From assembly GCA_000091205.1 (NCBI GenBank), contig AP006491.2: 64,000 bases of DNA. The stretch is one strand, 5' to 3'. This document shows, piece by piece, positions 1,150-28,200 of this stretch (its first letter is position 1; each line of letters opens with the position of its first letter). The translations under genes were made by a program, and so were the position numbers. The stretch is from Cyanidioschyzon merolae. Taxonomy: Eukaryota. The notes beneath the pieces are model-generated. The model searched no databases and was not told the DNA's origin. It was given only the letters and a program-made list of their open reading frames with translations.

Positions 1150-3350
1150 TAATTCCAGAGGACTAGGAAAAGAAGTGGAAACGAAATGGGGATGTGCTAC
1201 GACGAACGCTGCAGTAGTTTCGTGTCTATGTCGCTATGGTTGTGGAATCCTGTCGTCTCCAACATATTAATGTTCCGTACGACTGAACGCTCCAAGATGC
1301 AATCAGAAACCACGTTGTCTCGCTCTCCAGGAATATTTGTTACTCTCCTTTAGAACTGACGCATTTGGTGATCGAGCTCCATCGCGACGTAACGCACATC
1401 GCAAAAGTGATCTTTCCGGAACACTTTTTCAAAACAGAGTTTCATCTACCACCTGAATGCTTGCAATGGGGACGCATCGCGGGGAAACTAGCGGGCGGAT
1501 GCCTACGTCAAAATTTACGACAAGTACCGCATCAACGGTGCTGGACACAGGAGTGACGCAGATATTTACGAATACAGGGCAATTAGGTGCCTCAAGAATG
1601 TGAGGAACCATAGGATCCTCATCCTCGATTGTATCATGATACGCGTTGTCATTGTGCTGCACCCGGGCCTGTTTTGCGAAGGGATGCTGGCAATCATCGA
1701 TGGTATGAAGAACGATCGCCAGCATGAACAGGAGATCATATTTGTCGACAAGAGAACATCACACAGGAGAAGAAATAGGTATTCTGTTATCCGCGCAAGT
1801 ATTCAAAAGCGTCGTTCGGTCTCGGGACTTGTCAACCCAAGAGAAAAACCTGTCATGTATGGAAAATATGAAGAGAGATGTTCCTTCCTCATCTTGCCCT
1901 ACTTCATGGTTTTTGGATCGAGATCTCGAACGCAGGGCCGAAATGGAGCTGAGTATGGATACAATGGAGTATTGGAGAAATGGCACTGAAGAACTCCTCC
2001 AGTTGCGCTTTATTCGACCGGTTTTGCGAATTCCAGTCACCTGTTTTGATTTTTGACTTTAGAGTTCTTTTCGCCTTCATGGAAGAGGTTTATCCAGTGC
2101 CCGATTGAAGCGACAGAGACGTAACCGGCGAAGACCGGGACACGTACTAGATGCGGAAATTCGAGTTCAAGCGTGCAAAACCGGCGAATAAAAGGTAATT
2201 ATGGGGGCCATCGATAACGATCGGGTATACATATATGTACATTTTCAGCGGTTGCAGGTGCTTCGTCCCATCCCGTCTTCGTTACCGCCCTCGCCGAAGC
2301 ACGGAAACAGGAAGGCCGGCCATGGGATATATAATCCCCACGAGGACGACTTCGTCGTCGGCCTCAAACCCTGGATTACTGACTTCATTACCATCGTTGT
2401 AACAAGCGTTAGGTACATAATGTACTGAATGTAACTTACGTCGGAATGACAGGCGTCTTTTGAGGTTCTAGAGATCGACGTTCTACCCAGAAGCGGGAAT
2501 CGTGAATACGAGGAAGGAAATTGAGACTTGGGATGCAGAAGTGGAAGAGCATCTCGAAGTTGTGAGCGAGGTGAAGAGCCGAGGAGCGGATTTTCAGGCT
2601 TTTCAAGATTTCATGGATGTTCGTTTTGCTCATTGGGATGCGCTGTGGAAGGAGTATACAAACCCCCGGTGGGCTTTTCTACGTTCGAATCTATACTGTG
2701 GGAAGCCGCATGCATTCGCCGACTTTTTCAATGAGTTGAGCTCCTTGAAGGAGAATGAAAGTTTGAGGCTCGTAGTAGCATATTGAGCATGGAGCTGGGC
2801 GTCAAAAAAGGGGACTACGCGAGCTCCAGCGACAAGAACATTCAAAGAGTGTGCACGGCGTCTCTTTACGGTACCTGTAGATGAATTTGGAGCTTCGTAT
2901 ACACACCACGAGCTGGGGTGTACATTCCAGAGGGGCGAGATGCAAAAGTGCCAACGGAACCCTGAGGAAATAGCAAACTACGGACCGCTGACGGAAGAGC
3001 AAATGGAAAGGAGCGCAAAAGTTCATGGACTCCTTGCATTAGTAGGTACAACGAACGATGGCGAGAAACGGATGGAGTTCGTGAACCGAGGCTTTAACGC
3101 CGCTATCAGTATCAGTAGATGTGCGGTGCTGGAGAAGAGACCTGCAAACTAGACAAGAGACAACTTTGTTGGACAACCTCCCAAAGTCGAACTATATGAG
3201 AGAAAGTTGGAAGCAGTAGTGGGTGGCCGGTCGAAAACGGCGGGGAGGCGTCTGCACATCAGCTGGAGACGTTATGTCTCGGGCGCCGGTGGCCACTACT
3301 GTACACGGCCGGCGTCGTTCGACTTAGTACGGCGTTTCGCCGTGTACGCT
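1150..3350 (+). mobile_element. Copy D of the TnpB/Fanzor-like repeated element; degenerate, 5' portion diverged
   Basis: Nucleotide and protein similarity to copies A-C across the whole unit. RDVTHIAKV at 1365-1556 matches RDVTHIETVEIP of the other copies. GKWAI...DRKHE and VDKKTSRKRKNEASVIRA blocks are at 1600-1989. A RuvC-I remnant HEDDFVVGLKPW has lost the Asp. The [11 protein letters not shown] and LVVAY block is at 2502-2786. The zinc-finger and RuvC-III remnant (EFVNRGFNAAISI) is at 2940-3152. A conserved 3' tail runs 3200-3350 with its stop codon mutated, so the ORF reads through. Confidence 0.6.
1365..3283 (+). pseudogene. TnpB/Fanzor-like nuclease pseudogene (copy D); multiple frameshifts and stops, catalytic Asp codons of RuvC-I and RuvC-III mutated
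   Basis: Fragments lie in three frames. VDPG has become LKPW and RDFNAAINI has become RGFNAAISI. The terminal stop is lost. Confidence 0.55.
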
Positions 3351-5998: not shown

Positions 5999-8193
5999 AT
6001 GGAGGTGAAAACCTTTCTTCTTGGACATATCAAGGATCCCTACAGGGAAAAGTTGCGAGAAACTATCGAAAAACGTGTCGACTCGTACTCCAAGAGTATT
6101 GCCAAGGCGTCGTCAGGACTGATGCATATGGCGAGGGAGATGTATCGCGACGTAACGCACATCGAAACGGTCGAGATTCCAGACGAGCTTTTCGACAAGA
6201 CCTTTATTCGTCACTTGATGCTTGGCGCAGAGAAAGCGCCGAGGGAAAATGTGCTAGTGCATGCCCTCCACGAAAAACATCCCTTTTAGAGCTTCGACGG
6301 TACTCGATACACAATTGACTGGTGCATTTACACATACGGAGCGATGAAGTACATCACGAACCTGAAGAACCATTTGACTATGAACCTCGAACGCTTCATG
6401 ATACGCGCCGTGTTTGCGCTGTACCCTGGCATCGCTCGCAAAGGAAAATGGGCGATTACCAATGGCGTCACGAACGATCGCAAGCATGAAGATGCTATCG
6501 AGCTCGTCGACAACAAGACATCACGTAAGCGAAAGAATGAAGCTTCTGTAATCCGTGCGGCCATACACGAGTACCGTACAGTCTTGGGGTTGGCAAATCC
6601 GACAGACAAGATATCAGAGTTGAAAAAATATAAGGAATGGTACTATCGCCTCGTCCTGCGCTATTTTGTGTTTCTGGACCGAGAACTCGAACGCAAGGCA
6701 GAGGCGAGGCTGAGTGAGGAAAAAAATGAAGAGTGGGAGAGACGGAAGGCTTTCCTAATGGGTAAGCGCTTCAACGTCGTTCCAACGTGCAAGATCAAGT
6801 GACATTTGTGACTATCGACTCTAGAATCCTTCACGCCATCATGAAGGAGATCAGTCCGGAGTTCAGTGTCAGCAAGGAGAAGTTCTCCGGTGAAAACCGG
6901 GAGAGGTACTGGAAAAATATCTTCGATTTCAAACGCTTGAGAGTGAGCAAGGAAACGTTGTTCACCGGGATGTTTGAAACCGATGGAGTAGCCTAGTGTG
7001 TACACTATCGGCGGTTCAAGAAAGATCGTCCTGGTCCGCCGTCGGCTGTGCCCGTGACGAAGGATGAAGAAAAGAATGAGGCGGATCCTGCGACGCAGGA
7101 GGTGGAGGAGAACGAACTTATCTTTGACGCGGCGAATCATGAAGATGAGGAGGAGGCGGATCCTGTGACGCAGGAGGTGGAGGAGAACGACCTTGTCGTT
7201 GACGTGGCGAAGCATGAAGGAAAGAAGGAGGCGGATCCTACAATGCAGAAAGTGCAGGAGAACGACTTTGTCGTTGGTGTGGACCCTGGAAATACGAATA
7301 TCATAACCATCGCAGCACCCAAGCGCGCGGAAGATGGTGCTGATGGTAACTTGCGTCGGAAAGACATGCGTCTTTTGAGGTTCTCAAGAGCTAGATATTA
7401 CTGAGAATCCGGTGTAATGAATGCAAGGAAGAAAACCGAGAAATGGAATTCAGGAATGAAAGATCACCTAAAAGCTTTGAGCGAGGTGACGAGCCGAGGA
7501 ACCGACTTTGAAACTTTTCGGAAATTCATGGAAGATCGGTTTGCGCATTGGGATGCGCTGTGGGAGGAGTATACCATGCCCCGGTGGGCTTGTTTGCGTA
7601 TGAATTTGTATTGTGGGAAGCAGCGGGCGTTCGCCAACTTCTTCAATCAGTTGAGCGCCTTGAAGGAGGACCAGAGTCAGAGGCTTGTAGTAGCGTATGG
7701 GGCAGGCCGCTGGAAGACCCAAAAAGGAACTATGCCACCTCCAACGACAAGAACGCACAAGGAGTGCGCACAACGTCTCGTTACGATACCTGTAGACGAG
7801 TTCCGAACATCCTATACACACCATGAACTGGGATGTACACTTCAGAAAGTGGAGATGGAAAAGTGTTAGCGGAGCCCTGAAGACATAGCAAAGTACGGTC
7901 CTTTGACGGAAGAGGAAACGGAAAGGAGACCGAAAGTTCGAGGGCTACTCGCATAAGTGAATACAACTAACGGGAAGAAACCGATGGAACTCGTGAACCG
8001 GGACTTAAATGCCGCTATCAATATCCGAAAATGTGCGATGCTGGAGACGAGACCTCCAGAATGGACAAGAGAGAACTTTGTTGGACAACCTCTTGAAGTC
8101 GAACTATATGAGAGAAAGTTTGAAGCAGTAGTCGGTGGCCGGTCCAAAAAGACGGGTAGGCGTCTGCACGTCAGTTGGAGACGTCTTGTCTAG
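5999..8193 (+). pseudogene. TnpB/Fanzor-like RNA-guided nuclease homolog, copy A (RuvC-I, TS/zinc-finger block and RuvC-III present; several premature stops)
   Basis: MEVKTF...HEKHPF is followed by a stop. In-frame TGA codons occur at SRARYY*ESG (7399) and EMEKC*R (7867) where copy C has sense codons. [17 protein letters not shown] is at 7260-7330. [17 protein letters not shown] is near 7790. VNRDLNAAINIRK is near 8000. Confidence 0.75.
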
Positions 8194-8280
8194 GGCGGCC
8201 CGGACGCCACTACTGTACACGGTCGGCTTCGTTCGAGTTCAGAACGACGTTTGGCTGTGGTGTTGAATGTCGAGCGCCGA
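8194..8280 (+). other. Conserved structured 3' non-coding tail of the element; candidate fRNA/omegaRNA scaffold
   Basis: The tail is conserved in all four copies immediately after the nuclease stop. Its sequence is gtxgtgggtxgccggtcgaaaaagacxgggaggcgtctgcacgtcagxtggagacgtxxtgtctagggcg...gccactactgtacacggccxgcgtcgttcgactt. It contains a GCGTCT...AGACGC hairpin. Homology between copies ends about 40 nt past cgttcgactt. Confidence 0.4.
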
Positions 8281-10780
8281 TCAGCCTCCGACCCAGTCTC
8301 GAGAGCAAAACTGGTCTCAGGTCTCGAGCACTGTCGTCGAAGTTGCCCACACAGTGGACGTTCACGTTCAACCCGTGTGCTTCGTCGATCTGAGCGAGGA
8401 AATTCACGCCTTCGCGCAGCTAGAAAAGTTTGCGAAGTGTGAATCATCCGAAGTTATCATAGATCTTAATGTCCGAAATACACATCAAGCTGTTGGGGCC
8501 CTCGTTCGCTGTCTGGAGGAGCGCGGAAAGTTGCCAGCTCACTCCGGAGACTTGCTACGGCGGCAGCTCCTTGGCGCAGAGCCACCGTCACTCTTTCAAC
8601 TTGCACAGCAGGGGCTTCATATGTCTAGTGGGGGAGACGTACTCGGCCACGCTTCTGGATACTGGACACATAGCATACAGGGGCCCTCTTTTATTATTGG
8701 GTATACCGAAACCCCTTTGTTGCTTAGTGACGAGGAAGCAGTAGCAGTTGCACGGCTCGCACACCCGCTCAACGCTGGGGCACTCAACAACTCGCTGACA
8801 CGCTTCCTAGTACTTGTACTGACGCTTGCGCACGATACACCCCAGGTTCGCCGGGCGTCCGAAATGGCACGCGTTTTCGCTTCGCTTTTCGCAGATGAAG
8901 TATTCTACGACGAAGCTGTCGAGGCGTCCGATAGAGCTTCTTTCCTGGAGGCTATCCATCGTTTCCTTGAACGGCAACGGGACGCTGCACGAGAACGCGA
9001 AGCGCTGCATCGAAGCGTTCGATTGGCGACAGCAGCCACGGTGACTTTCTTCGATGATGATAATCATGTTGATGGTGATGGCGTTGCGGAGTATCTTGGT
9101 GGTACAGATGGCGGTACCCTTTCTGGGTGCAGAACAAAAGATGTGACTATTAACGACAATTTTGGTATCATGAACGCTCGCCTCGACCGATACTTCAAAG
9201 CACAAGGATATTCGAATCTGGATACGGTGCCACGCTGGAAGTACTGGTTGGCGCTGTTCTTTCGCTTTCCGGGGGTATTGATGGCTGCAGATCTTCGCCG
9301 CCGTCTACCCCATTATCGATCCGACTGGACAGCGGAATGGAACAAGATTCACGCTCTCGGAAAGTATTTCTTCGCGAGTATTTTTCTCATATTTACAGTC
9401 ACGTTGCCTGCGATTGTTTTCGGCGTTATAGCGAGTCGCACGACTCACGGAGAGATTGGTGTCATCGAGTGTCTGTTTGCCCAGGGTGTACTGGGCATTG
9501 GTTTTGCGTTCTTCAGCGCCCAGCCGCTGATGGTGAATATGGTCACTGGTCCCACCATCGTCTACATTCAAGTGCTCTATCGCTGGTCCCAGAGGCTCGG
9601 GTTCGCATTTCTCCCCTTTTTCGGATGGACGGGTATTTGGATGGGCATTTTTGTGATGTCGTATGCGATCATGAATACGTCAACACTCATACCGTACCTT
9701 GGCCGATTCACTGATGAGATTTTCCAAACCTTTATTGGAATCATTTTTATTCAATATTGGTTTACGGAATTTGTCCGAGTTACGCACACCGGTTACGAAC
9801 AGGTCCTTTTATTCTTGGTGCTTTCTCTGGGAACGCTTCTGCTTGCGTTACTTCTGGTGTCTGTACGAGGCAGTTTCCTGCTACGCCCCATACTGCGATC
9901 CATTCTGGGGGACATCGGCCCCGCTCTCTCTGTTTTCATTTGGACCGGTCTGTCGTACGCGTTCGATCCGATTGATGTGCCTCGTCTGCAGATACCGGGC
10001 TCTGTTGGTTACAGCACAACGACTGGACGACCGTGGATTGTCCCCCTAGGAAGTCTATCCGTCGGCTATGTATTTTTGGCCATCGTTCCCGGCTGGCTGC
10101 TCTCGCTCATCGTCTACATTGATCAACAGGTGTGTACTTATATCGTGGAACGACCGGAAAATCGCTTGCGCAAAGGCACTGGGTACAGTTGGAATCTTTT
10201 TGTGACTGGCGCTCTTGCCGTTCTTGCCTCGATTCTCGGCATACCTTGGATGTATGCAGGGCTGCCACACTCGCTTTTGCACGTTTATGCACTTGCTGAA
10301 ATTGAGGACATAGAGCTCATGGGAAGACGATGGATACGTGTTCTTCGTGCGCGGGAGGTGCGCATTGCTGCACTAAGCGCTTACCTCTTTGCCTTGTTGA
10401 TCATTCTGGCCAAACCAGCTCTAGATCAGCTGCCGATCTATGTGTTGTACGGCTTTATTCTGTACATGGGTGCAGCTTCATTTCTGAACAACCCTCTCTG
10501 GGATCGATTCGTTCTCTTGTTTACGCAGCCAACCAAGTACCCACCGACACATTATGTTCGACGTGTCCCCATGAGTCACCTGCACCTCTACACCTCTGTT
10601 CAGGTAATCCTTACAGTCGTTCTCTTTTTTGTCGCGGTCAATTTTTATCGAGGTGCAACTCTATTCAATACTGGCCTCATCTTTCCATTGGTCCTGTTCC
10701 TTTTCGTCCCATTCAAGTGGATGGTGTTGTATCGCTGGTTTCCGCGACGTGAGCTGCGCGTGCTTGAAAATCAGCTTTAG
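8267..10780 (+). CDS. SLC4/Band-3 family anion exchanger (bicarbonate transporter-like)
   Basis: An 837-aa ORF. FSAQPLMVNMVTGPTIVY matches the GQPLLV..SGP..VF motif. FTDEIFQTFIGIIFI matches YTQEIFSFLISLIFI of AE1. There are 10 or more hydrophobic segments after a hydrophilic N-terminal domain of about 330 aa. The ATG at 8267 lies inside the conserved 3' tail of element copy A. Confidence 0.85.
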   Translation: MSSADQPPTQSREQNWSQVSSTVVEVAHTVDVHVQPVCFVDLSEEIHAFAQLEKFAKCESSEVIIDLNVRNTHQAVGALVRCLEERGKLPAHSGDLLRRQLLGAEPPSLFQLAQQGLHMSSGGDVLGHASGYWTHSIQGPSFIIGYTETPLLLSDEEAVAVARLAHPLNAGALNNSLTRFLVLVLTLAHDTPQVRRASEMARVFASLFADEVFYDEAVEASDRASFLEAIHRFLERQRDAAREREALHRSVRLATAATVTFFDDDNHVDGDGVAEYLGGTDGGTLSGCRTKDVTINDNFGIMNARLDRYFKAQGYSNLDTVPRWKYWLALFFRFPGVLMAADLRRRLPHYRSDWTAEWNKIHALGKYFFASIFLIFTVTLPAIVFGVIASRTTHGEIGVIECLFAQGVLGIGFAFFSAQPLMVNMVTGPTIVYIQVLYRWSQRLGFAFLPFFGWTGIWMGIFVMSYAIMNTSTLIPYLGRFTDEIFQTFIGIIFIQYWFTEFVRVTHTGYEQVLLFLVLSLGTLLLALLLVSVRGSFLLRPILRSILGDIGPALSVFIWTGLSYAFDPIDVPRLQIPGSVGYSTTTGRPWIVPLGSLSVGYVFLAIVPGWLLSLIVYIDQQVCTYIVERPENRLRKGTGYSWNLFVTGALAVLASILGIPWMYAGLPHSLLHVYALAEIEDIELMGRRWIRVLRAREVRIAALSAYLFALLIILAKPALDQLPIYVLYGFILYMGAASFLNNPLWDRFVLLFTQPTKYPPTHYVRRVPMSHLHLYTSVQVILTVVLFFVAVNFYRGATLFNTGLIFPLVLFLFVPFKWMVLYRWFPRRELRVLENQL

Positions 10781-12451
10781 ATGGAAATTTCTGATCGAGT
10801 CTTGGGAGTTTTCCAGTAAAATTGGCCATCGCAGATTGATAGATAGACTGTAGAGTCGGAAATCGTGTTTACATTTCATCGAAGCGCAAATTGCTGGGGC
10901 AGGCATGTATCAGCAGAGGCCCTTTTTGCGAGTACGGGAGGTAGGTGCTTTCCTGATGCGAGGCCGAGATCTCGAGTCCAAAGTGATCCGCTGATGCTTG
11001 CTTTTCCAGAGGTAGAGACTCCCTTTGCCGGAACTGGTCGTGATTTGTACCCACAACCGGTACGGAAGGCACGTCAGTGAAGAGATTCGCTACGACTATA
11101 CGCGGTATCATACGATTATGCTGCGGAGATCTCGGATACGAGAGCCGAAATACAACACGTGGCGCTGATAAAAACAACCCGCTTGATTGCATGCGACTTG
11201 TTGGACATTCGGGAACAAGGCGGTTCATTTTGGAACGCCCATGCCAGCATACCTTCTTTGTTTATGTTTGTTATTCTCGCTGGTATTCGCGAATCGACCG
11301 TGTCGCATAGATTGGAAATGAGCCGTGGAAAGAGTACATGCTGTTATCATCGGACAACGTCATACGAGATTACAAGTGAAACACAGTGATTCTAGGGTCA
11401 TCAAACGGATGAACGAGTTTTTCGTTGTACTTATCTTGACCCTCCTACACCCAAAACTAAACACAGAAATATCGCCTACAAGACTGTGTCCGGGTTCATC
11501 CTTTTCTTTGCATGCGACCTCGAAGAGAGACTACAATCACCTACAGGGTGTGAATGGTCCACATCGTTGATTCGGACAGCGATCAAGGGACACAGACGGA
11601 CAGAAGTAAGGCATTATTTATTGCAGACCGCCACGCTCCGAACAGGGCAAAATCGAATTCATACTCAAACGCACGCGTATCTCTCGGGAGAAAGAGGTAT
11701 GGATCTCGAATGGTGAAGTTCTAGTCAAGAGAAATACTATTCTTGAATATGGGTACTCGGAGGTTAAGCGTAAACCCCTGATCGTAAAAGAGACAGCGCG
11801 CAACCTGACAACATCGGTCTTACCAGTTTCCAAGTACATCGTGTGCTGGGAATCGCGGAACTTGCAGCATAACTCAATGACACATGTTCCTTCCGAGTAC
11901 TTCGCAATGCCTCCTTCACAAAACCATAGAACCCGATCGTCGATGACGTCGGTCTCCATCACATAGAAGCGGACGGAAAATACGCAGCTGATATTGGCAG
12001 CTGTTGCTATTTGGTCCTTCCCATTCTATCTGGACAAAATCAGCAACTGGGATCTTCTCTGCAGTCAGACGATGATCGTGTATACACAGATCACTTAGAG
12101 AGTTGTTCGAGTTCGTGAAATTGAACTTCTTTGATAAAACCTTCCTCGACATATCGGTGACCTACTTTACCAGCTCATAGCCACCGTCATCTTCCTCGTA
12201 CATATGAAGGAGGAGGAAGAAAGGCGAGCGCCAAACTGTAGGCGTGCTCGCGACGGCAAGACTGGATTGATTTACTAGAAGAAGTAACTTTCGTCGCACG
12301 GTCCATCCCGCACAAACGACTCCTTTTGGAAACAAATGCATCCACAGTAAGCTGGCCACTGCCAAGCACTCCTTCGGTGTGGATGAAAAACGGTGTAACG
12401 GGAAGGATGAGAAGCAACGGGAAAGAAAGGAAGAGAATCCTCCAGGAAGAC

Positions 12452-13660
12452 GACCAAGGAGGACTTGGGGCAAAAGCTGTCGGAGCGGAAACATCTTTCA
12501 GGAACCATCGTCAAGGCCTCCGTCCTACAAATTACCATCAGGAATAATCTCCCACACAACGAAATGCTCAACATCGTTCCCGATCGCGTGGCTTCCGTCT
12601 CGACGCAAGGTAAACCCAGTTTCCCGCTCCACGATGCATGTCGCCGAGCAGGTGTTCGTACCAGTCTCGGACGCAGAGCTGCTAGCAGCCGGGATTCCTC
12701 GGGAGCTTTTCGATCTCGGCTTTGTGCCATAACACAATGGATGCTCGGGACGGAAGACGCAGTGCGGTCCGAGTACAGGATCAGGGAGATACGCGCACAC
12801 ACACACATTACCCAGACTTGGTTGACGCTTCACTGCACAATGTTGACGATCGGAACATCTGCACTGCAGGCGGCCATAACACTATCAAACCGACCACTGC
12901 AATCAAGTCCATACGCCTGCCAAATGACGAGCGCTCCATGCAGCGCACCCTGTAGGCGTTCTATTCTCACGCTGGCGGCCCCGGTGAGTTGGTACTGACA
13001 CCAAAAAAGAATCTTCGCCTCTGCGCATACACGAGCGTCCATATCGCCCAGGCGGACAATCCGTGGCACGAATCCATGCGACAGTGGTGGTGCTGCCAAA
13101 AGATTCCATTCGACGGAGGCAGGTCTCTTGCATTCACCAACTTGTCCAATGCACTGAAAAGATAAGTGACCGAAAAGCCGTTTTGTTTTCCGGTGGTAAC
13201 CCGCGTCGCTGGACGTTCTGTGGCGAGCCATGGAGACGCCCATGTCCCTTCGACGAACGCACGCCGCAAGTGCATTGCTCCATGCCGAACGAATCCCATC
13301 GATGCATCCAGGGCGCCATCCAGGTATGTTGAGCACGGGCGCGCATGCACGAAGCTACAGAAGAAGGGCTTGAAATACATCCAGATGAACGAGATGGCGT
13401 GCGTCTCGCTGACTTGACGGAGATACGGATGCCTCGATCGGCATCCGAAAAGGACCCCTGCGATTCGGGAGCGTCCATCGTTTCTTTTTTTCTGCCGGAG
13501 GATATTTCCAGTTGATCTATTGACGACGCAGTGCGCCGTTGTTCGGCAGAGCGGAATGCTTCTGATCCAAAGAAATCAATGCCAAAGATACAACGCATTT
13601 GATTCCGGTCTGGAGAAATGCACTGGTATTGTATGAGCTGCAACCCAGGAGGTCTTGAGC
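12452..13660. repeat. Dispersed repeat, copy 1 of 2 (about 1.2 kb; second copy at 47486-48700, direct orientation, roughly 97 percent identical by eye)
   Basis: The ORF-track proteins are near-identical, 12465 MGQKLSERKHLSG... and 47509 MGQKLSERKHLSG.... The nucleotide match runs from cgaccaaggaggacttgg to tgtatgagctgcaacccag. An internal (CA)n is present. No recognisable domain. Confidence 0.8.
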
Positions 13661-14967
13661 GCCGTACGTTTGCACTGGAAGTAATGCTTCCAGGCAAAAA
13701 GTAGAAGATATTGCTGTCCTATGGTTCGCTATTATTGACTAGTAAGTAAGAGCAGTACGGCTTCATTTGATCCAAAAGTGAAATCGACCACCGATAGGAT
13801 TGTGACAAGCGTCAATTGAGACGAAGAGCGCTCCTATAGCACGATAGACTCTATGACAGTTGCTACATAACAAACACGGATGCTCCTGCATTCAGCGTAT
13901 ATGTCGTGCAACTCCATGCTTCAATGTGTCCAGTCATGGTCGGCCGTTTGCGAGCGTGACAGTCCACGTCCACTCAGAGAAGCAGTTCTCCTCGAGAGTC
14001 AACGTAGGCACAGCGTTGGGGTCCACCTGATAGTAGCGTCTCACAACTGATACCAGCGTGATTAGGTGGCTTAACGGCACGATACGTTTATCCTAAAAAA
14101 TAAAACATCCCAGCAATACGACAGTCAGTGCATTGCTTTCTTCGGGAAGACGACTCGTCTATTGTTAGGCAACGTTGCGGTACGACACGCATCTCACCGG
14201 ACACGTAGGAGAAGGCGTATATCAGCAAGAGGGATCCTACTCGTCCCCCAGTATCCATTCGCATTCCAGAATGCTATCGGAAAGAAGGAACCGACGAGCG
14301 CCGCCGATCACACTGCTGGAGTATCACAGGGGCATATCATACTAGGTGTCCCTATTACGGCAATAAGCTCCTGAGCAAACCTTCTGCAACCATAACACAA
14401 ATTCTGAAATGCTCTCCCTATTTTGGATGACGTCCGAAGGCTCTATCCGTAACGTCCAGGATGGCACCTGTGCCTGAAACTCGCCCTGCTCCACCTACTG
14501 AGCGCACGTGGACCTGAAGGCGCACAGGAAAGAGCACCATACGCATCTGCTGCCTACATTGCCGAGTGAATCGTAAGACACCACGACCAAGAAAAGCGTT
14601 TATACACAGTACGCACCAACGCATGCCATCCCCCTCTGATCCGTCTGGAGTTGCCGGACGCACGCTTCACAGTCGCAACTAGCCGGCTGTCCCATGAGCG
14701 AGGTTCAGCTACAGATCCACCCATAACAGATTCGATGTCCCTGCTCGCCTCCTAACGTCCGACACTGCTCCCAGAAGCGAAGCGCCTCATTCGCACAAAC
14801 GCGTGCTTAAACGGCAACGTCCCTACCGTACGCAAGAACCGCGCCCGTACAACCCGCATCACTTGAACTGAAGCAGCGATACCTACAGTTCCCGATGCGT
14901 ACAGCGCTCGTCACGCCCGGGGCGCTTGGCGATGTGGCTTGCAGGGCAGAGAGCGTGGGCGAGCGCG

Positions 14968-17535
14968 CCTGGGAAATCGCGCAGTCAACTGACACGATGC
15001 GCGTGCCGCCGATGAAGGGAAACGTTGTCGTGATCAGTTACGTGTTGTTCTGCTGTAAACATCGGATTTCTGTTGAGGCCATAGCAAAATACAGTCTTTC
15101 GGTTCGGTTTTGTTTCAAACTTCAACCAAGTCTAGTAAAGTGCTTTCTCGCAGCATATAACAGAAGCGTTCATTGAGGGTTCTTTAAAAAACGAAAAACG
15201 GAAAGCTATGAAAAACCAGTCGACGATCCTGGAGGGCTAGGGTCGCCAGCCGCTAGAGACAAACAAAAAGCAGTGCCGAGTCCAGAAGAAAAGGAAGAAA
15301 AGAAGAACCGAAAGCGGGAGGCCCTACGTCGGAGGCGGCAAGAAACATGACTGTAGAACGAGATGGAGGTGAAAACCTTTCTTCTTGGACGTATAAAGGA
15401 TCCCTACAGGGAAAAGTTGCGAGAATCTATCGAAAAACGTGTCGACTCGTACTCCAAGAGTATTGTCAATGCGTCGTCAGGACTGATGCATATGGCGAGG
15501 GAGATGTATCGCGACGTAACGCACATCGAAACGGTCGAGATTCCAGACGAGTTTTTCGACAAGACGTTTATTCGTCACTTGATGCTTGGCACACAGAATG
15601 CACGGATGGAAAATGAGCGAATGCATGCCCTCCACGAAAAACATCCCTTTTACAGCTTCAATGGTACTCGATACAAGGGTGACCGGGATGTTTACGACTA
15701 TGGGGCGATGAAGTACCTCACGAACCTGAAGAACCATTTGACAGAGAACCTCGAACGTTCCATGATACGCGCCGTGGTTGCACTCCACCCGGGCCTGTCT
15801 CGCCAAGGAAAATGGGCGATTATCATAGGCATCACCAAAGATCGCAAGCATGAAGATGAGATCGAACTCGTCGACAAGAAGACATCACGTAAGAGAAAGA
15901 ATGAAGCTTCTGACATCCGTGCGGCCATACAAGAGTACCGTGCAGTCTTGGGGTTGGCAAATACGACAGACAAGATATCAGAGTTGAAAAAAGATAAGGA
16001 ATGATACTATCGCCTCATCCTGCGCTATTTTGTGTTTCTGGACCGAGAACTCGAACGCAAGGCAGAGGCGAGGCTGAGTGGGGAAAAAATGAAGAGTGGG
16101 AGAGACGGAAGCCTTTCCTAATGGGTAAGCGCTTCGACGTGGTTCCAATGTGCAAGATCAAGTCACATTTGTGACTATCGTCTCCGGCGTCCTTTACGGC
16201 ATCATGAAGGAGATCAGTCCGGAGTTCAGCGTTAACAGGGAGGAATTCACCTGTGAAAACCGGGAGACGTACTGGAAGAATATCCTCAATTTCAAACGTC
16301 TCAAAGTCAGCGCGAAAAAGAAATTCACTGGGATGCTCGAAACCGATGGAGCAACCATTTGTGTACACTATCGGCGGTTAAAGAAAGATCGTCCAGTCCC
16401 GCCCTCGGCTGAGTTCTCTGCGAAACATGAAGAAAACAAAGAAGCGAATCCTGAGACGCACAAATTGCAGGATGACGACCTTGTCGTTGGCGCGGTGAGG
16501 CATGAAGAATAGAAGGAGGCAGATCTTGCGACGCAGGAGGTGCAGGATAACGAACTTGTCGTTCCTGCGGACCCGGGGAATACAAATATCATAACCATCG
16601 TTGTGCCCAAGCATGCGGAAGATGGTACTGACGGCAACTTACGTCAGAAAGACACGCGTGTGTTGAGATTCTCGAGAGCGAGAAATTATCGAGAATCCGG
16701 TATAATGAATGCGAGGAAGAAAATCGAGACTTGGGATGCAGGAATGAAGGATCAAATGGAAGCTTTGAGCGAGTTGACTAGCCGACGAACGGACGTTGAA
16801 GCTTTTCGGAAATTCATGGAAGTTCGCATTGCGCATTGGGATGCGCGGTGGGAGGAGTATACAAAGCCCCGGTGGGCTCGTCTGCGTATGAATTTCTACT
16901 GTGGCAATCAGCGGGCGTTCGCGAATTTTTTTTAATAAGTTGAGCGCCTTGAAGGAGAATGAAAGTCAGAGGCTCGTAGTAGCGTACGGAGCAGGACGTT
17001 GGGCGTCGAGAAAAGGGACTACACCAGCTCCAACGACAAGGGTGTACAAAGAGTTCGCAAGGCATTTCGTTACGATACCTGTATTTGAGTTCCGAACATC
17101 GTATACACACCATGAGCTGGGTTGTATACTCCAGAGAGTCGAGATGGAAAAGTGCCTGCGGAGTCCTGAAGATATACAAAAGCACGTACCGCTGACGGAG
17201 GTGCAACTGGAAAGGAGGGCGAAAGTGCGAGGGCCTCTCGCATTAGTAAGTACAGCCAATGATGGCAAGAAACGTATGGAGTGTGTGAACCCAGATTTTA
17301 ATGCCGCTATCAATACAGGAAAAAGTGCGGTGCTGGAGAAAAGATCTCCAGAGTGGACAAGAGGGAACTTTATTGGACAACCTCTCAAAGTTGCACTATA
17401 TAAGAAGAAGTTGTAAGCAGTACTAGGTGACCGGTCCAAAAAGAAGGGGTGGCGTCTGCCCTTACTTGGAGATGTTTCGTCTAGGGCGCGGTTACAGCCA
17501 CTACTCTACAGCTGGCGACAGCGTTTTTTCTTTTG
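14968..17535 (+). mobile_element. Copy B of the TnpB/Fanzor-like repeated element
   Basis: Same 5' boundary and leader, with the TATA-like box at 15154. The N-terminal ORF 15363-16004 is uninterrupted over 213 aa. The conserved 3' tail is more diverged. Confidence 0.8.
15363..17416 (+). pseudogene. TnpB/Fanzor-like nuclease homolog, copy B (nonsense at KDKE*, frameshifts, RuvC-III NRD changed to NPD)
   Basis: TGA replaces TGG at about 16003. RuvC-I is [16 protein letters not shown]. The TS block is IPVFEFRTSYTHHELGC. RuvC-III is VNPDFNAAINTGK. Confidence 0.7.
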
Positions 17536-19491
17536 AAAGGTGTTTCTTTCCAGGGGTGCGTCCGCCAAGCGACACTATCCAACTGGAAGCCCGCAAGCAC
17601 CAGCAACGTCCTCTGTAGAGCGCAATCACGAAACCTGCACAGGATCACACGTGGGCGGTACCAGCTTCGCTGTCAATGCTCCTCGAGAAAATGCTCTGCA
17701 GCGGGATATAACGCGCTGCCTGGCCGAACTGTAGGCCGAAGCTCACCAGCCCGTTTCCGTGACTATAATATATCGTATCGAGGTTTCGCGTCGTAGCGCT
17801 TTGTATACCGACGGTTAAATAGAGTGTGGAGGCAAACGACGAACGCTTATCTCGCACGTACGCAGCACAAGTTAAACTAACTCAGACGATACCGCTTGCA
17901 GACGATTCGACGGCGCCTGGCTCATCACTGTGCAATTCGTCGTGGCAGACCCCTCTGACGCTCGGAGTACTTTGGTCGGCAAAGATATTGGCTAAAGAGG
18001 TTTGTGTACTTGCTGCTGGGAACTCCTTCTGTTCCAGGCCTGGTACGAGCGCCAACTCCGGGAGATCGTTTACGAGCATCCAACTTTGCCGGACGTTGGT
18101 GATGCGGGCGGGCGGTGGTAGCAAGTCGAGGCGCTAGCGCCGCGCTTCTAAGGCGTCACGAGCGAGCAAGCAGTGAAGCTTCGAAGTATACGGTGCCACG
18201 TACGGCAAAGAGCGTTGTCCCCCACGTAATCCTGACCGTTTATCTTACGCAAACGCGTCGGTAACCATTCCTTGCTTTCCCAACATTGAATCTATCAACT
18301 GTTTCACCTGTGCGCACTACTTGTTCACGAACTTAGAGTGAAATCCGCCTCGCACGAAGCCATTCGGATGAACCATGCTACCTGTGCTCCGCCAGCGATG
18401 AGGACGCGGGTCTGCGCTCATCCGTCGTGTTTTGTACTAGCTGAAGGACTTCAATAGTACCAGTGCATGAGAGCATTGACAGCAAGTCTGAGAATACGTC
18501 GCCACCGCAGTGCAAGCACGGTACAAGCACACACGCACATGAAACCGCTACTATATCCATCTCTCTCGGAGCAAGCATCATCGGCCGAGTCACTATTTCG
18601 ATCGATCTAATAGTTCACATCTTCTACGGTTTCCATTCCACACAGGATTCACATTTCGATATTCTGTTTGCTGCTTATTTTAGCAACGCAACAGAACAAG
18701 TCGCTGTCGCAGAATAGCCCCAATCTGACCACTGCGCATCTGGTTCGGTCGCTGACGTTCCCTCACGGACGCAAAGCGGAACTATGGCAACAATGTGTAT
18801 CGAATGCTACAAAGAAAGCGGATATACACGGAGAGCAGCTCGAAAGGTGCGAAACGAAGCATACAGACTGCGAGTTTTTCCAAGCTCCATCATGAATGTG
18901 GCATTTGCTAAAAGAACCTCCCCAATACCGTGACATTGTAAACGGAGCGCACCGTTCCAGTACAGAGCAATTTCCATTCCCGTGTTCACCGAAATGGAAC
19001 GATGCCTGGCGGATCCACTCCGCTGCAAACAGTATTTGCGGAAGGCCAAAGCTTCAGCGATAAGGTGCACTTTGAAACGCGCCTGAAGCAGATGTAGTTC
19101 TGTGTACGTGTAATTGATGCGCTGCGTGTATTAGCACCAATAGTGCTGCTCGAAAAGCCCTTGATAAGAAGGTAACGGGCAAAACTTTTCGTTCCAAGTC
19201 ACTCGACAGCTGGCGTGTATTGCGAGGTGAGGTCACTCACCGGTTCAGAAGTAATAGTACGCGAGCGTGTGTTTCAGTGCTGCTGCCGCTTATTCCACCA
19301 GATGACTCGAGACCTGCTACATAAAAGTCATGAGTTCCGTGCATCAGCCACGTCCACACTGCGGCTGAATTGCCCAGAGTGCACTTAACACCATCGAGGA
19401 GCGCTTTTGCAGAGCGTCCTGCCTCCCATGCATGGATCCCTTGACTGGGGCGTTCTGAGCACCTTCAGCCGATAGGCTATTCTTGAAAAGA

Positions 19492-22400
19492 TCAAATGAT
19501 GTTCTGCACGTGTTGAATTCGAGGAACGACATAGAACCAACGACCGAATGCCGTCATATTCATCCCATTGTTCGTGCTAGATAGACCGCCGCTGCCACTG
19601 GTGCCTGAACCAGAAGTTCCGCTGCTGCTACCACTACCGTTGTCACTGGTGCCTGAACCAGAAGTTCCGCTGCTGCTACCACTGCCGGTGTAACTGGTGC
19701 CTGAACCAGGAGTTCCGCTGTTGCTACCACTGCTTGTGTCACTGGTGCCTGAGCCCAAATTCCCGGCTCTGCTGCTACTGCTGCTGACAGGGATAGCGGA
19801 TGTCTGCTCGATGATCCTATCCGGGCCTGAAGATGAAGTAGTTGGAGCATCGATACCTGTTCCAGGGCGGGGTGTTGACCCTAGACTGCTAAAAGTTGGC
19901 GGACTTATCGTGGTACGCATCGCTGGTGCGACTGCCCCCAGTGTGGATGAATGCGAGTTACGTTCTCCGCCGGGTTCCACATTGTCTAAAAAGGAGCCGC
20001 CAGAAGTGCTCGTTGTAATAACCGGAGTAAAGGGCGGTGGTAGTGTTGCCGTGGTCGCCACAGGTAGAGTGCTTACAGAGAGCGATGAGGCCTGTGATGA
20101 TGAGGGGGTCATCGACATCGCATTCATCTTAGCGATGTACGGAGATGGTGTGGGATGAACAACAGCTGGAGTAACCGTTGCAGTTGCTCTTGGAGCGCTT
20201 TCGGCACTATGGGTGCTGTTCCGCTCAGGTTCAGCAAAAAAGGCCTCAGAGACGCCAGACGATGCCGTGCCATTCGAGGTTGACGTACCCGCCTGGACGC
20301 ATACGCAAAGGTCGCCAAGGCAGACCTTGGCCAGGTTACCAGAACAGCTGCCGGTGGTCGTTACGCACCCGCAGATACCTCCCAATAGACATGTGTAGAC
20401 GACTCCTCCGGGGCACGTGGGAACCGAAGTAGACGAGGCCGTACTCGTCGATGTAGACGTCGACGTAGGCTGCGAAAATGACGGTGACGGTGTCGGTGTC
20501 CCCGCTTCAACACAAACGCACGTATCACCGACACACAACTTGACGAGGTTCCCAGGGCAGCTTCCGCTCGTTGTCACGCACCCACAGATATCACCCAACA
20601 GGCAGGTGTAGACGAGTCCGTCAGGGCAGGAAGCCGTCGTTGTTGGTGAACTCGTGCTCGTCGTTGTTGGTGAACTCGTGCTCGTCGTTGTTGGTGAACT
20701 CGTGCTCGTCGTTGTTGGTGACGTTGGCGACGGTGTCGGTGTTCCCGCCTCGACGCATACGCAGAGGTCGCCAAGGCAGACCTTGGCCAGGTTACCAGAA
20801 CAGCTGCCGGTGGTCGTTACGCACCCGCAGATACCTCCCAATAGACATGTGTAGACGACTCCTCCGGGGCACGTGGGAACCGAAGTAGACGAGGCCGTAC
20901 TCGTCGATGTAGACGTCGACGTAGGCTGCGAAAATGACGGTGACGGTGTCGGTGTCCCCGCTTCAACACAAACGCACGTATCACCGACACACAACTTGAC
21001 GAGGTTCCCAGGGCAGCTTCCGCTCGTTGTCACGCACCCACAGATATCACCCAACAGGCAGGTGTAGACGAGTCCGTCAGGGCAGGAAGCCGTCGTTGTT
21101 GGTGAACTCGTGCTCGTCGTTGTTGGTGAACTCGTGCTCGTCGTTGTTGGTGACGTTGGCGACGGTGTCGGTGTTCCCGCCTCGACGCATACGCAGAGGT
21201 CGCCAAGGCAGACCTTGGCCAGGTTACCAGAACAGCTGCCGGTGGTCGTTACGCACCCGCAGATATCTCCCAATAGACATGTGTAGACGACTCCTCCGGG
21301 GCACGTGGGAACCGAAGTAGACGAGGCCGTACTCGTCGATGTAGACGTCGACGTAGGCTGCGAAAATGACGGTGACGGTGTCGGTGTCCCCGCTTCAACA
21401 CAAACGCACGTATCACCGACACACAACTTGACGAGGTTCCCAGGGCAGCTTCCGCTCGTTGTCACGCACCCACAGATATCACCCAACAGGCAGGTGTAGA
21501 CGAGTCCGTCAGGGCAGGAAGCCGTCGTTGTTGGTGAACTCGTGCTCGTCGTTGTTGGTGAACTCGTGCTCGTCGTTGTTGGTGAACTCGTGCTCGTCGT
21601 TGTTGGTGAACTCGTGCTCGTCGTTGTTGGTGACGTTGGCGACGGTGTCGGTGTTCCCGCCTCGACGCATACGCAGAGGTCGCCAAGGCAGACCTTGGCC
21701 AGGTTACCAGAACAGCTGCCGGTGGTCGTTACGCACCCGCAGATATCTCCCAATAGACATGTGTAGACGACTCCTCCGGGGCACGTGGGAACCGAAGTAG
21801 ACGAGGCCGTACTCGTCGATGTAGACGTCGACGTAGGCTGCGAAAATGACGGTGACGGTGTCGGTGTCCCCGCTTCAACACAAACGCACGTATCACCGAC
21901 ACACAACTTGACGAGGTTCCCAGGGCAGCTTCCGCTCGTTGTCACGCACCCACAGATATCACCCAACAGGCAGGTGTAGACGAGTCCGTCAGGGCAGGAA
22001 GCCGTCGTTGTTGGTGAACTCGTGCTCGTCGTTGTTGGTGAACTCGTGCTCGTCGTTGTTGGTGAACTCGTGCTCGTCGTTGTTGGTGACGTTGGCGACG
22101 GTGTCGGTGTTCCCGCCTCGACGCATACGCAGAGGTCGCCAAGGCAGACCTTGGCCAGGTTACCAGAACAGCTGCCGGTGGTCGTTACGCACCCGCAGAT
22201 ATCTCCCAATAGACATGTGTAGACGACTCCTCCGGGGCACGTGGGAACCGAAGTAGACGAGGCCGTACTCGTCGATGTAGACGTCGACGTAGGCTGCGAA
22301 AATGACGGTGACGGTGTCGGTGTCCCCGCTTCAACACAAACGCACGTATCACCGACACACAACTTGACGAGGTTCCCAGGGCAGCTTCCGCTCGTTGTCA

Positions 22401-23553
22401 CGCACCCACAGATATCACCCAACAGGCAGGTGTAGACGAGTCCGTCAGGGCAGGAAGCCGTCGTTGTTGGTGAACTCGTGCTCGTCGTTGTTGGTGAACT
22501 CGTGCTCGTCGTTGTTGGTGAACTCGTGCTCGTCGTTGTTGGTGAACTCGTGCTCGTCGGCTTTTGGGTGGGCCTTGTGGTGCTTGTAGCGATCGAAGTT
22601 GGTTTCGATGTGGTGGATATGTTTGATACTGTAGTTGCGCTCAATACAGGACTTCTTACAGGTATCAACGTCGAGACTACGGTGATTAATGCTGTTGCAG
22701 ATGTTGAGACAACAGCGGTCCTTGAAGGCGGTACAGTAATTGTTTGCACCACCGTTGGTTCATGACTTGTTACAACCGGTGTTGGCGGTAGCGTCCGATG
22801 TACTGTTTGTGGCGGAGTTTGGGCCATATGGCTCTTCGTCGCCTCTGGAAATGGAGTCTGTTGAATTGGACGGGGCGTCTGAATAGGGAAAACCTCTACA
22901 CTACACGTTTCCGAGAGCAGCTTGCACTCATATGTGCAAAACTCGCCTAGAACTATGGAAGTCGACGTAGTGGATTCTTCACCATACGAAGACGTCCACT
23001 TTCTGCTTGTTTTCCAATCTAACTCATTCTGTCGTTGAACATTCCCTTTTTCATATACCGCTGTAGAAGACTTTGGACATATTTGCAGAGCCTCAAACTT
23101 TTGCACGCAAACCTTGCATGTGTTTTGGTATTTGTACTCCACACAAACTTCTACTGATTTGAAAACACATTCCTTCCTACATTTTTGAATATTTTTCTGC
23201 GGTGCTGCGTCTTCGAAAGTTGTGTCTGAGGTCCAACGACGTCTCCAAGTCACTTTTCCGTTCCAGGGACCACCATACTCGGGACTCTTTGTCTCAGGCG
23301 CTGCTGTTGTACAGACGATATTTTCTTTCGCACAGACCAATATATTTTCATACGCTGCGCACGTCTTTACTAAGCTACACGGCCCGACCACGGTCTCCGG
23401 CTCGCAGAACTGCCATCTTAGCCCGGAGCTCGTAAGCGATCTACTCTCTCCATCAGTTTTGATCGGTGAGCTCGCCTCTGTGGAGACGGTCAACAGTATC
23501 GCTTGTGCGATCGTAATACAGAGAATCACAGATAAAGTCCGCGTGAACTTCAT
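19492..23553 (-). CDS. Secreted mucin-like Ser/Thr/Pro-rich cell-surface glycoprotein with tandem Cys-rich repeats
   Basis: A 1353-aa ORF with a true ATG. The N-terminal signal peptide is MKFTRTLSVILCITIAQAILLTVSTEA. A Cys-rich N-terminal module follows. About five tandem units of roughly 150 aa each carry two 8-Cys modules (CPDGLVYTCLLGDICGCVTTSGSCPGNLVKLCVGDTCVCVEAG), separated by SPTTTSTS runs. The C-terminus is a Ser/Gly-rich 20-aa periodic tail. Confidence 0.8.
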   Translation of the reverse strand: MKFTRTLSVILCITIAQAILLTVSTEASSPIKTDGESRSLTSSGLRWQFCEPETVVGPCSLVKTCAAYENILVCAKENIVCTTAAPETKSPEYGGPWNGKVTWRRRWTSDTTFEDAAPQKNIQKCRKECVFKSVEVCVEYKYQNTCKVCVQKFEALQICPKSSTAVYEKGNVQRQNELDWKTSRKWTSSYGEESTTSTSIVLGEFCTYECKLLSETCSVEVFPIQTPRPIQQTPFPEATKSHMAQTPPQTVHRTLPPTPVVTSHEPTVVQTITVPPSRTAVVSTSATALITVVSTLIPVRSPVLSATTVSNISTTSKPTSIATSTTRPTQKPTSTSSPTTTSTSSPTTTSTSSPTTTSTSSPTTTASCPDGLVYTCLLGDICGCVTTSGSCPGNLVKLCVGDTCVCVEAGTPTPSPSFSQPTSTSTSTSTASSTSVPTCPGGVVYTCLLGDICGCVTTTGSCSGNLAKVCLGDLCVCVEAGTPTPSPTSPTTTSTSSPTTTSTSSPTTTSTSSPTTTASCPDGLVYTCLLGDICGCVTTSGSCPGNLVKLCVGDTCVCVEAGTPTPSPSFSQPTSTSTSTSTASSTSVPTCPGGVVYTCLLGDICGCVTTTGSCSGNLAKVCLGDLCVCVEAGTPTPSPTSPTTTSTSSPTTTSTSSPTTTSTSSPTTTSTSSPTTTASCPDGLVYTCLLGDICGCVTTSGSCPGNLVKLCVGDTCVCVEAGTPTPSPSFSQPTSTSTSTSTASSTSVPTCPGGVVYTCLLGDICGCVTTTGSCSGNLAKVCLGDLCVCVEAGTPTPSPTSPTTTSTSSPTTTSTSSPTTTASCPDGLVYTCLLGDICGCVTTSGSCPGNLVKLCVGDTCVCVEAGTPTPSPSFSQPTSTSTSTSTASSTSVPTCPGGVVYTCLLGGICGCVTTTGSCSGNLAKVCLGDLCVCVEAGTPTPSPTSPTTTSTSSPTTTSTSSPTTTSTSSPTTTASCPDGLVYTCLLGDICGCVTTSGSCPGNLVKLCVGDTCVCVEAGTPTPSPSFSQPTSTSTSTSTASSTSVPTCPGGVVYTCLLGGICGCVTTTGSCSGNLAKVCLGDLCVCVQAGTSTSNGTASSGVSEAFFAEPERNSTHSAESAPRATATVTPAVVHPTPSPYIAKMNAMSMTPSSSQASSLSVSTLPVATTATLPPPFTPVITTSTSGGSFLDNVEPGGERNSHSSTLGAVAPAMRTTISPPTFSSLGSTPRPGTGIDAPTTSSSGPDRIIEQTSAIPVSSSSSRAGNLGSGTSDTSSGSNSGTPGSGTSYTGSGSSSGTSGSGTSDNGSGSSSGTSGSGTSGSGGLSSTNNGMNMTAFGRWFYVVPRIQHVQNII
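19560..19800. repeat. 60-bp periodic repeat encoding the Ser/Gly-rich C-terminal tail of the mucin-like protein
   Basis: The 60-bp unit ggtgcctgaaccagaagttccgctgctgctaccactaccgttgtcactggtgcctgaaccagaagttcc is repeated. Confidence 0.7.
20180..22560. repeat. Coding tandem array, period 432-480 bp, about 5 units, with a nested 24-bp minisatellite (ggtgaactcgtgctcgtcgttgtt, 2-4 copies per unit)
   Basis: Identical antisense ORFs recur at 20417, 20873, 21305, 21785 and 22241. Unit length varies with the 24-bp copy number. Confidence 0.9.
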
Positions 23554-27689: not shown

Positions 27690-28200
27690 CTCACACGGCT
27701 CGTGGGACCTTCCGCCTAAGCGGTAAACGTACAAAGATACGGGAACTATTCCCCCCTTCAACGCTTACTATCAAGGTCGAGCGAAACGATTGTCGAGTTG
27801 CGAGTCAGTGGTTAGTTTCCGTTCTTTCGGCAACGTGTCGTGATTCGTTATCATTCTCGGAGCCTGCAAGCTGTACAGACAGACCAATTGCCTTCAGCAG
27901 CGCGAAGCGATATACAAGGAGTCATCTTCGACCAGTGCGACGCACACTTGCAGCATACCCGCTCCTGGTCCCAGAAAAATCTGTTTTTCGGACGAGTAGC
28001 TCAGATCTCAACGCAGCATCTGCCAATGCAAAGTCCCACGGAGCGCAAGCCCCGCAGGCTCGTCCGGCTCGCGGGACCTTCTGCCTGAAAGGTAGGCTTT
28101 CTAACATACGGAAATACTTTTCCCCTTTCAACGTTTGTTGTAGAGAGGGAACGAAATCGTTATATCGTTGCTGGTGAATTGTGAGTCTCTGTTCTTTGTT
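27690..28200. repeat. Two copies of a roughly 140-bp segment about 360 bp apart, upstream of element copy C
   Basis: The segment at 27700-27830 is cggctcgtgggaccttccgcctaagcggtaaacg...gttagtttccgttctttcgg. The segment at 28060-28200 is cggctcgcgggaccttctgcctgaaaggtaggc...gagtctctgttctttgtt. Confidence 0.6.

Follow-up and report, generated by a model that had tools for sequence, protein, structure and literature searches.

A predicted two-hairpin RNA at the right end of CMe-1A, a Fanzor1 family of Cyanidioschyzon merolae, as a candidate omegaRNA scaffold

Fanzor omegaRNAs encoded at the 3' end of the nuclease open reading frame (ORF) have been established since 2023. In the SpuFz1 element of Spizellomyces, about 80 nt separate the stop codon from the right end, and the omegaRNA is composed of a 75-nt scaffold followed by a 14-15-nt guide that is taken from the flank (Saito et al., PMC10432273). 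The omegaRNA of GtFz1 from Guillardia overlaps the last 17 codons of its ORF (PMC10432273). The first stem-loop (SL1) has seven base pairs (bp) in all three solved Fanzor1 omegaRNAs, and in SpuFz1 and in PpFz1 from Parasitella a single further stem-loop precedes the guide, in RNAs of 75-90 nt (Xu et al., PMC11423790). In C. merolae, a single Fanzor1 family, CMe-1A, was described by Bao and Jurka (2013, PMC3627910). It has ~150 copies that are ~80% identical to their consensus, is ~3 kb long, lacks terminal inverted repeats (TIRs), has target-site duplications (TSDs) that were not determinable, and shares its 5' part with another repeat, TE-N2_CMe (PMC3627910). That study predates the discovery of omegaRNA, and the 3' tail of the element was not treated there as an RNA. 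No paper on an RNA of the C. merolae Fanzor family was found in the literature, and one broad literature search for Fanzor in red algae gave nothing relevant. The present work concerns four copies of CMe-1A in a 64,000-nt stretch of C. merolae DNA from contig AP006491.2 (the window hereafter), and the short conserved block that follows the nuclease stop codon in each of them. With a probability of roughly 0.55, the ~70-nt segment bounded by the family stop codon and the right end of the element is the omegaRNA (fRNA) scaffold of CMe-1A. The parts of this putative scaffold would be a 7-bp SL1 starting at the stop codon, a single-stranded conserved linker, and a long terminal stem-loop rich in G.U pairs (SL2).

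One element of 2.2-2.7 kb was found by repeat search and blastn in four copies on the same strand of the window: copy D at 1154-3344, copy A, a pseudogene, at about 5521/5596-8259 (+), copy B at 14966-17552 (+), and copy C at 28221-30963 (+). The 5' end of copy A, taken from blastn between copies, is approximate; the core common to B and C begins at ~5596 and the 5' homology to a metagenome locus (L015) begins at 5522. The copies are 77-86% identical over their better-conserved 3' part (blastn). Their flanks are unrelated, and therefore they represent separate insertions rather than a segmental duplication. These repeats are decayed members of CMe-1A; all of the observed features agree with the published description (PMC3627910), the match being made with that description and not with the Repbase consensus.

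A single reading frame, containing the GVDPG, DEFRTS, and NRDxxAAINI motifs, is present in each copy. The single ORF sequence gave no matches in Pfam or PDB, and 1002 relatives, most of them of 600-700 aa, are present in a 50%-clustered protein library. A profile of the window ORF and its relatives (30 sequences) matched the structures of PpFz1 (9CF0, E = 2.5e-19), SpuFz1 (8GKH, E = 2.5e-11), and GtFz1 (9CER, E = 9.7e-5), and by these profile matches the window ORF belongs to Fanzor1. The catalytic residues D11 (GVDPG), E183 (DEFRTS), and D252 (NRDxxAAxNI), in copy C numbering, are invariant across 30 diverse relatives. Identity at codon positions 1, 2, and 3 is 0.80, 0.82, and 0.70, respectively, which argues for past purifying selection. 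An AlphaFold2 model of the RuvC half, based on a shallow alignment, had a mean predicted local distance difference test score of 41.7 and was unusable. No relatives of the element were found among viral contigs. Directly before the RuvC-I motif, the Fanzor ORF contains a 75-nt (25-aa) tandem repeat with DPAMQEVEDNDLVVDVTKDEDKKEA-like units, located at 6995-7350 in A, 16433-16638 in B, and 29698-29978 in C. The number of units varies from one to at least five among copies and metagenome proteins, and each unit is a duplicate of the stretch running up to the catalytic aspartate.

The tail was compared among 27 independent insertions, which were obtained from the window, 36 metagenome loci encoding relatives (hot-spring contigs), and ten more loci found by exact protein look-ups; two of the loci, L001 and L002, match copy C at 100% identity. 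In agreement with a sequence-only reading that preceded this analysis, all four window copies have a shared block 3' of the family stop codon. A covariance model of the tail places the block at the 3' end of the ORF, on the ORF strand, in 27 of 27 insertions, and it detected no solo tail blocks in the 64-kb window and ~200 kb of loci. Rfam gave no matches at the gathering score for the whole window, and none at E <= 1 for 7950-8350.

The end point of the block can be located from its conservation. Counted from the stop codon, column identity over 21 independent insertions amounts to 0.71 for +3 to +40 and 0.57 for +40 to +68, and past +68 it is 0.31-0.35, equal to background. At a finer scale, a fall in identity from 0.75 to the background value of 0.29 immediately follows the end of the motif GGCGUU (position 8251 of copy A), and the sequences just past the block differ between copies as had been noticed before. 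The ends of pairwise blastn alignments spread over 8219-8259 of copy A. The part that is conserved by sequence after the stop is ~60 nt long (8194-8251 in A), and 8-10 nt more of G/U-rich sequence can pair back, to ~8259, so that the 80-130 nt of conservation initially reported was too long. The drop in identity after GGCGUU, the scattered blastn ends, and the pairing flank together suggest that the right end of copy A lies between 8251 and ~8260.

The 20 nt past GGCGUU (8252-8271 in A and the equivalent positions elsewhere) are G/T-rich, with a fraction of 0.59 compared with 0.47 in the next 40 nt (p = 0.01), and many of these stretches resemble degenerate (UGG/GUG)n. This tract may be a decayed terminus, a target-site preference, or guide-proximal structure. 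The 22 nt past GGCGUU stabilise the terminal hairpin by -3.5 kcal/mol in comparison with random 22-mers (p = 0.0016). When own and swapped flanks of this length were combined with the upstream arm, the own flank had no advantage (p = 0.37). It is possible that the 22-nt flanks represent a degenerate segment of the element rich in G/U, or a preference for certain targets.

Copies A, C, and D have the same predicted fold on the sense strand, with SL1, linker, and SL2 in this order. In copy A, SL1 (8191-8212, +) is a 7-bp hairpin (UAGGGCG / CGCC-A-CUA) with one bulged A, and its first three bases are the stop codon TAG (8191-8193). In some minimum free energy (MFE) folds only 4 bp of it are formed, and 86-88% of the SL1 cells are paired. 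The SL1 loop, 7 nt long in A (8198-8204) and located at 17489-17495 in B, 30903-30909 in C, and 3286-3290 in D, is hypervariable in sequence and length and adds two helix pairs in some copies (L013, L027, L044). Between the two hairpins is the linker (8213-8217, +), the unpaired part of the conserved sequence CUACUGUAC. SL2, the long terminal hairpin, spans 8218-8259 (+) according to the predicted fold and the covariance-model alignment, with outer arms at 8218-8223 and 8254-8259, inner arms at 8225-8234 and 8242-8251, and a loop at 8235-8241. The inner helix of 10-12 bp is formed by GGCGUCGUUC and GAACGGCGUU, and the outer helix of 5-9 bp is formed by CACGG(Y) and the G/U-rich sequence past GGCGUU; sequence homology between copies within SL2 stops at ~8251-8257 (copy A).

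The tail of copy C (SL1 30896-30917, SL2 30923-30963, +; fold z = -1.86) follows a RuvC-half ORF at 29954-30898. Copy D (SL1 3279-3298, SL2 3304-3344, +; z = -1.52) has by mutation TCG (3279-3281) in place of the stop codon, and its SL2 helix reaches 3347 with a perfect 9-bp outer stem, GUACACGGC/GCCGUGUAC. The tail of copy B (SL1 17482-17503, SL2 17513-17552, +; covariance-model match of 25.3 bits, z = -0.85) is the most degraded of the four. Its homologous stop is at 17482-17484 and the tail itself at 17485-17552, and the range of 17417-17535 given for it by the sequence-only reading starts at a premature stop. Copy B forms a second subfamily with six metagenome loci (L005, L011, L018, L022, L023, and L027), in which the 5' arm of SL2 has a 3-nt insertion and a CGA-to-UUU change. 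Members of this subfamily pair in a register shifted by 3 nt and have a longer helix, up to 14 bp.

The stem that had initially been emphasised as an invariant part of the non-coding tail, GCGTCT/AGACGC, belongs to the ORF. According to sequence and translation, its 5' arm GCGTCT (8160-8165, +), loop (8166-8178), and 3' arm AGACGT (8179-8184) in copy A lie in the last 12 codons (RRLHVSWRR), before the TAG at 8191-8193. The stem is also not invariant, since the 3' arm varies between AGACGT (A, D), AGACGC (C), and AGATGT (B). The coding region nevertheless carries a signal of its own. Synonymous sites are more conserved over its final 60 codons (8011-8190, +, in copy A coordinates): third-position identity is 0.78 compared with 0.69 elsewhere in the ORF (Mann-Whitney p = 1.6e-4), and identity at four-fold degenerate sites is 0.79 compared with 0.64. 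No convincing conserved structure was found in the last 200 nt of the ORF, and the coding part has no covarying consensus. The raised silent-site conservation suggests that a functional RNA, its promoter, or a processing site may reach into the 3' end of the ORF. The omegaRNA/fRNA scaffold first proposed for this locus is partly supported. The proposal is probably right as to the kind of RNA, whereas the emphasised stem is coding, and the lengths and one set of coordinates had to be corrected.

The block is shared between copies by common descent within one transposon family, and the evidence for constraint beyond descent is uneven. Mean column identity is 0.83 and 0.84 in the two SL1 arms and 0.86 in the linker (alignment columns 88-96, including the first SL2 bases and the last SL1 base). 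In the SL1 loop it is 0.40, and the baseline, given by four-fold degenerate sites of the upstream ORF, is 0.64. Conserved arms and linker around a variable loop are an unevenness of the kind that a functional hairpin predicts. In 21 insertions, the mean MFE is -28.7 kcal/mol for the sense strand and -22.4 for the antisense strand (Wilcoxon p = 3e-4), and the mean z against dinucleotide shuffles is -1.29 and -0.42, respectively; for the four copies in the window, z of the antisense strand is close to 0. Moreover, three inner pairs of SL2 are maintained as G.U. Strand-specific folding and the kept G.U pairs point to an RNA rather than to duplex DNA. Aligned by model fitting, 26 distinct tails have a covariation score of 0.204. 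Shuffles gave 0.133, with 0 of 500 attaining the real score, and a slid-partner control gave 0.11 at most. Changes on both sides are seen in 11 of the 16 SL2 pairs, for example from G-C in one subfamily to U-A in the other, and the two subfamilies each keep a terminal hairpin of 10-14 bp by means of different pairings.

These results bear on the rather improbable explanation that the tail is without function, being the non-coding end of an old transposon that is alike among copies by descent, with hairpins that occur by chance in G/U-rich sequence. SL1 arms and linker exceed the four-fold baseline around a variable loop, the sense strand folds better consistently across the insertions, the terminal hairpin is kept in both subfamilies despite the 3-nt insertion and the CGA-to-UUU change, and the covariation score on the model-fitted alignment is above both controls, all of which argues against chance. 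The same explanation draws on the ~80% identity of the copies throughout, on a tail identity at +3 to +40 (0.71) close to that of third-codon positions (0.70), on single-sequence z-scores that are not significant, on the lack of covariation on sequence-only alignments, and on the fact that all local copies are dead.

Several observations also weigh against the scaffold itself. The z of single-copy folds is only -0.85 to -1.86, and 11-34 of 200 shuffles fold as well. With RNAalifold, the sequence-only alignment gave a weak consensus of -9.6 kcal/mol with a positive covariation term; on MAFFT alignments weak stems were obtained and the terminal hairpin was missed, since the pairing of the two subfamilies is offset by 3 nt. 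For SL1, no compensatory changes were found and pairing is equal to the shuffle expectation, and the same is true of the coding GCGTCT/AGACGC stem as an RNA structure (0 compensatory changes in 21 insertions). Within one subfamily, covariation in SL2 is not significant, with 106 of 500 shuffles reaching the score. The positive covariation rests on a structure-fitted alignment and is partly due to register shifts, not to changes at homologous sites. Sequence identity in SL2 (0.62-0.75) is about neutral, and the stability of the tail fold has no significant correlation with the intactness of the ORF (rho = -0.33, p = 0.14). Covariation in a larger alignment, which the sequence-only reading had named as a check, is seen in the terminal hairpin on the model-fitted alignment and is not significant on sequence-only alignments; SL1 and the coding stem have no compensatory changes.

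The state of the copies counts on the same side. All four window copies have been reduced to pseudogenes by frameshifts and in-frame stops; compared with the consensus, copy A has two frame changes and six in-frame stops (tblastn), and the sole intact RuvC-half ORF in the window is that of copy C (29954-30898, 314 aa). A complete ORF is present in none of the 21 insertions examined, and function cannot be attributed to active copies. The left end, the target-adjacent motif (TAM), and the TSD were sought by comparing 5' regions and none was defined, because the 5' regions are subfamily-specific and adjoin another repeat family. Overall, SL1 and the linker are probably under constraint at the level of sequence, and SL2 is probably under constraint at the level of structure.

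Three features of these decayed copies are recorded here. A frame change occurs at one shared point (after ..PMCKIKSH) in A (6805-6808), B (16168-16171), and C (29434-29437), and metagenome ORFs such as P0028 are uninterrupted at this point; either the three copies descended from an already defective master or the lesion was spread by gene conversion. The four copies fall within 30 kb (window 1-31000) and all have the same orientation. With a genome of 16.5 Mb and ~150 CMe-1A copies in C. merolae, this group is a local cluster, possibly a subtelomeric one. Finally, another repeat family is found in the window at 27536-28220 and 34566-35271 and in seven metagenome loci (L005, L011, L018, L025, L026, L027, and L029). 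It adjoins the 5' side of C-type Fanzor copies, also occurs solo, in both orientations, near other Fanzor copies, and is possibly the TE-N2_CMe of Bao and Jurka.

The strand specificity of the fold also bears on an explanation at the level of DNA or of the messenger RNA, according to which the tail is the right end of the transposon, or a 3'-untranslated region (3'-UTR) or 3'-end-formation hairpin of the mRNA, is recognised by some machinery of transposition or 3' processing, and has no guide-RNA role. This is unlikely. On the opposite strand the conserved G.U pairs become C.A mismatches, which are weak in DNA; short-word blastn found no similar hairpin or sequence at the left end; and the element holds the Fanzor frame only, with no transposase ORF. 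The 7-bp SL1 followed by SL2, and the distance from stop to end, also fit known Fanzor1 omegaRNAs. What speaks for a DNA end is that the hairpin is at the very end of the element, that CMe-1A has no TIRs (PMC3627910; none in the window copies), that the left end of the A-type subfamily opens with a short palindrome, GTGTCGGACAC, which loosely recalls elements with hairpin ends, and that the G/T-enriched 20 nt past GGCGUU could represent a degenerate tract at the terminus or a preference in target choice. [quoted passage not shown]

Other arrangements of the ends were considered and rejected. The sequence-only reading had named, as evidence that would count against the scaffold, a terminal repeat in which the block is found also at the 5' end. 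A comparison of left and right ends by short-word blastn gave only chance 5-13-mers, none of them common between copies, for the tail block and its reverse complement, and a terminal repeat at both ends, inverted or direct, was rejected since there is no left-end copy. No inverted repeats of at least 60 nt were found in the window. An IS200/IS605-like or Helitron-like element was rejected because the left end has no counterpart of SL2 and the consensus has no Y1 or RepHel frame, the Helitron CTRR terminus not having been examined systematically.

If CMe-1A is a Fanzor1 element without inverted repeats or TSDs that terminates in a strand-specific hairpin, it may conceivably spread, or have spread, without a conventional eukaryotic transposase. 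The terminal hairpin would then act, in a eukaryote, as both the transposon end and the guide-RNA scaffold, which is very improbable. Two routes might be taken in such a scheme: 1) an IS200/IS605-like single-strand mechanism that depends on the hairpin and 2) omegaRNA-guided cutting combined with homology-directed copying alone.

Two insertions retain only the 3' end of the element, the L031 group (438 nt) and L036 (239 nt). These short copies, together with the lack of TIRs and the G/T-enriched tract past the hairpin, are what might be expected if the hairpin and tract were a recognition module for retrotransposition in trans, like the 3' stem-loop of stringent long and short interspersed nuclear elements (LINE/SINE). 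However, there are no TSDs around the short copies, no reverse transcriptase is associated, and Fanzor1 elements are otherwise DNA transposons (PMC3627910). In addition, the L036 fragment resembles a rearrangement and not a clean 5' truncation, so that retrotransposition of this kind is extremely improbable. Positions 1-2703 of L036 are syntenic with window 32565-35271 at 89.5% identity, synteny stops exactly at the 239-nt Fanzor 3' fragment, and the window sequence at the break is unrelated to that fragment. The junction is a strain-level rearrangement breakpoint at a repeat, as the fragment adjoins a copy of another repeat and synteny breaks there. For the same reason, L036 was rejected as an empty site, since a break exactly at the fragment gives no information on the element boundary.

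If the omegaRNA scaffold is accepted, its action can be potentially described as follows, by analogy with characterised Fanzor systems. A sense transcript would be made, or processed, so as to begin near the stop codon and to include the right end and 15-20 nt of flank. A Fanzor protein from an intact copy elsewhere in the genome would bind SL1 and SL2, and the flank-derived 3' extension would guide the protein to cut matching DNA beside a TAM. The exact junction between scaffold and guide is inferred from the same analogy. In copy A, the guide would occupy 8260-8280 (+), as judged from SpuFz1 (PMC10432273), and would overlap the ATG at 8267 of the host gene BAM79923.

This host gene encodes an anion transporter, and the right end of copy A is ~8 nt 5' of its annotated ATG. 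It follows that the 5' UTR or promoter of BAM79923, if any, is inside the Fanzor element. Three metagenome insertions (L038, L041, and L045) are located 115-350 nt upstream of genes in the same orientation, which encode ribosomal L34e, a PI3/PI4 kinase, and ubiquitin. In the window, three long ORFs match exactly with C. merolae 10D proteins annotated on an 810-kb chromosome: the anion transporter BAM79923 (ORF 8267-10780), the L-asparaginase BAM79928, and the RRP40-like protein BAM79930. Host genes in the window have no introns, and the G+C content is 46-62%.

Other repeats in the window were also observed. Two segments of ~650 bp, at 12448-13090 and 47492-48138, are 99% identical in direct orientation and 35 kb apart. 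An ORF of 1353 aa on the minus strand (19492-23553), rich in Ser/Thr/Pro and in Cys and secreted-looking, is composed of five ~99% identical units with a period of 432-480 nt, within which 24-nt repeats occur; it resembles a gene for a mucin-like surface protein that was homogenised recently. A pair of tandem arrays is found at 41945-42838 and 56267-56479, with a 66-nt unit in at least ten copies and a 68-nt unit in three copies, and the second array is within the 5' region of a UTP14-like ORF.

C. merolae is a thermoacidophilic model alga that is genetically tractable and has a tiny genome. If the scaffold is real, a native Fanzor1 family of ~150 copies would have a compact two-hairpin omegaRNA of ~70 nt, the role of Fanzor for its transposon could be tested directly in a eukaryotic host, and the Fanzor/omegaRNA pair might be adapted to heat and acid. 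Since Fanzor omegaRNAs at such a position have been established since 2023, the family has been known since 2013, and the window copies are dead, the result does not change the current understanding of these systems.

Compared with the solved systems, the CMe-1A tail differs in several respects. The SpuFz1 elements have 30-nt inverted repeats and their RNA spans the 3' one, whereas CMe-1A has no TIRs. Its SL2, at 16-17 bp with bulges, is much longer than that of SpuFz1 or PpFz1, and its SL1 starts exactly at the stop codon, unlike theirs. The omegaRNA of GtFz1 and that of ISDra2 TnpB, also called right-element RNA (reRNA), overlap the 3' end of the nuclease ORF. The silent-site conservation in the last 60 codons of CMe-1A would fit such an overlap, which is a hint and not a finding given that the coding part has no covarying consensus structure. 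On the other hand, the tail resembles the omegaRNAs of SpuFz1 and PpFz1 in its position, its strand, its size of ~70-75 nt, and its arrangement of a 7-bp SL1 with a single SL2, a likeness between a predicted fold and solved structures for which no homology or relation in primary sequence is claimed. As in these systems, a variable flank directly follows the right end of CMe-1A, and the protein is a homologue at the profile level. Therefore, the tail RNA of CMe-1A is most likely a so far undescribed omegaRNA of a well-established kind.

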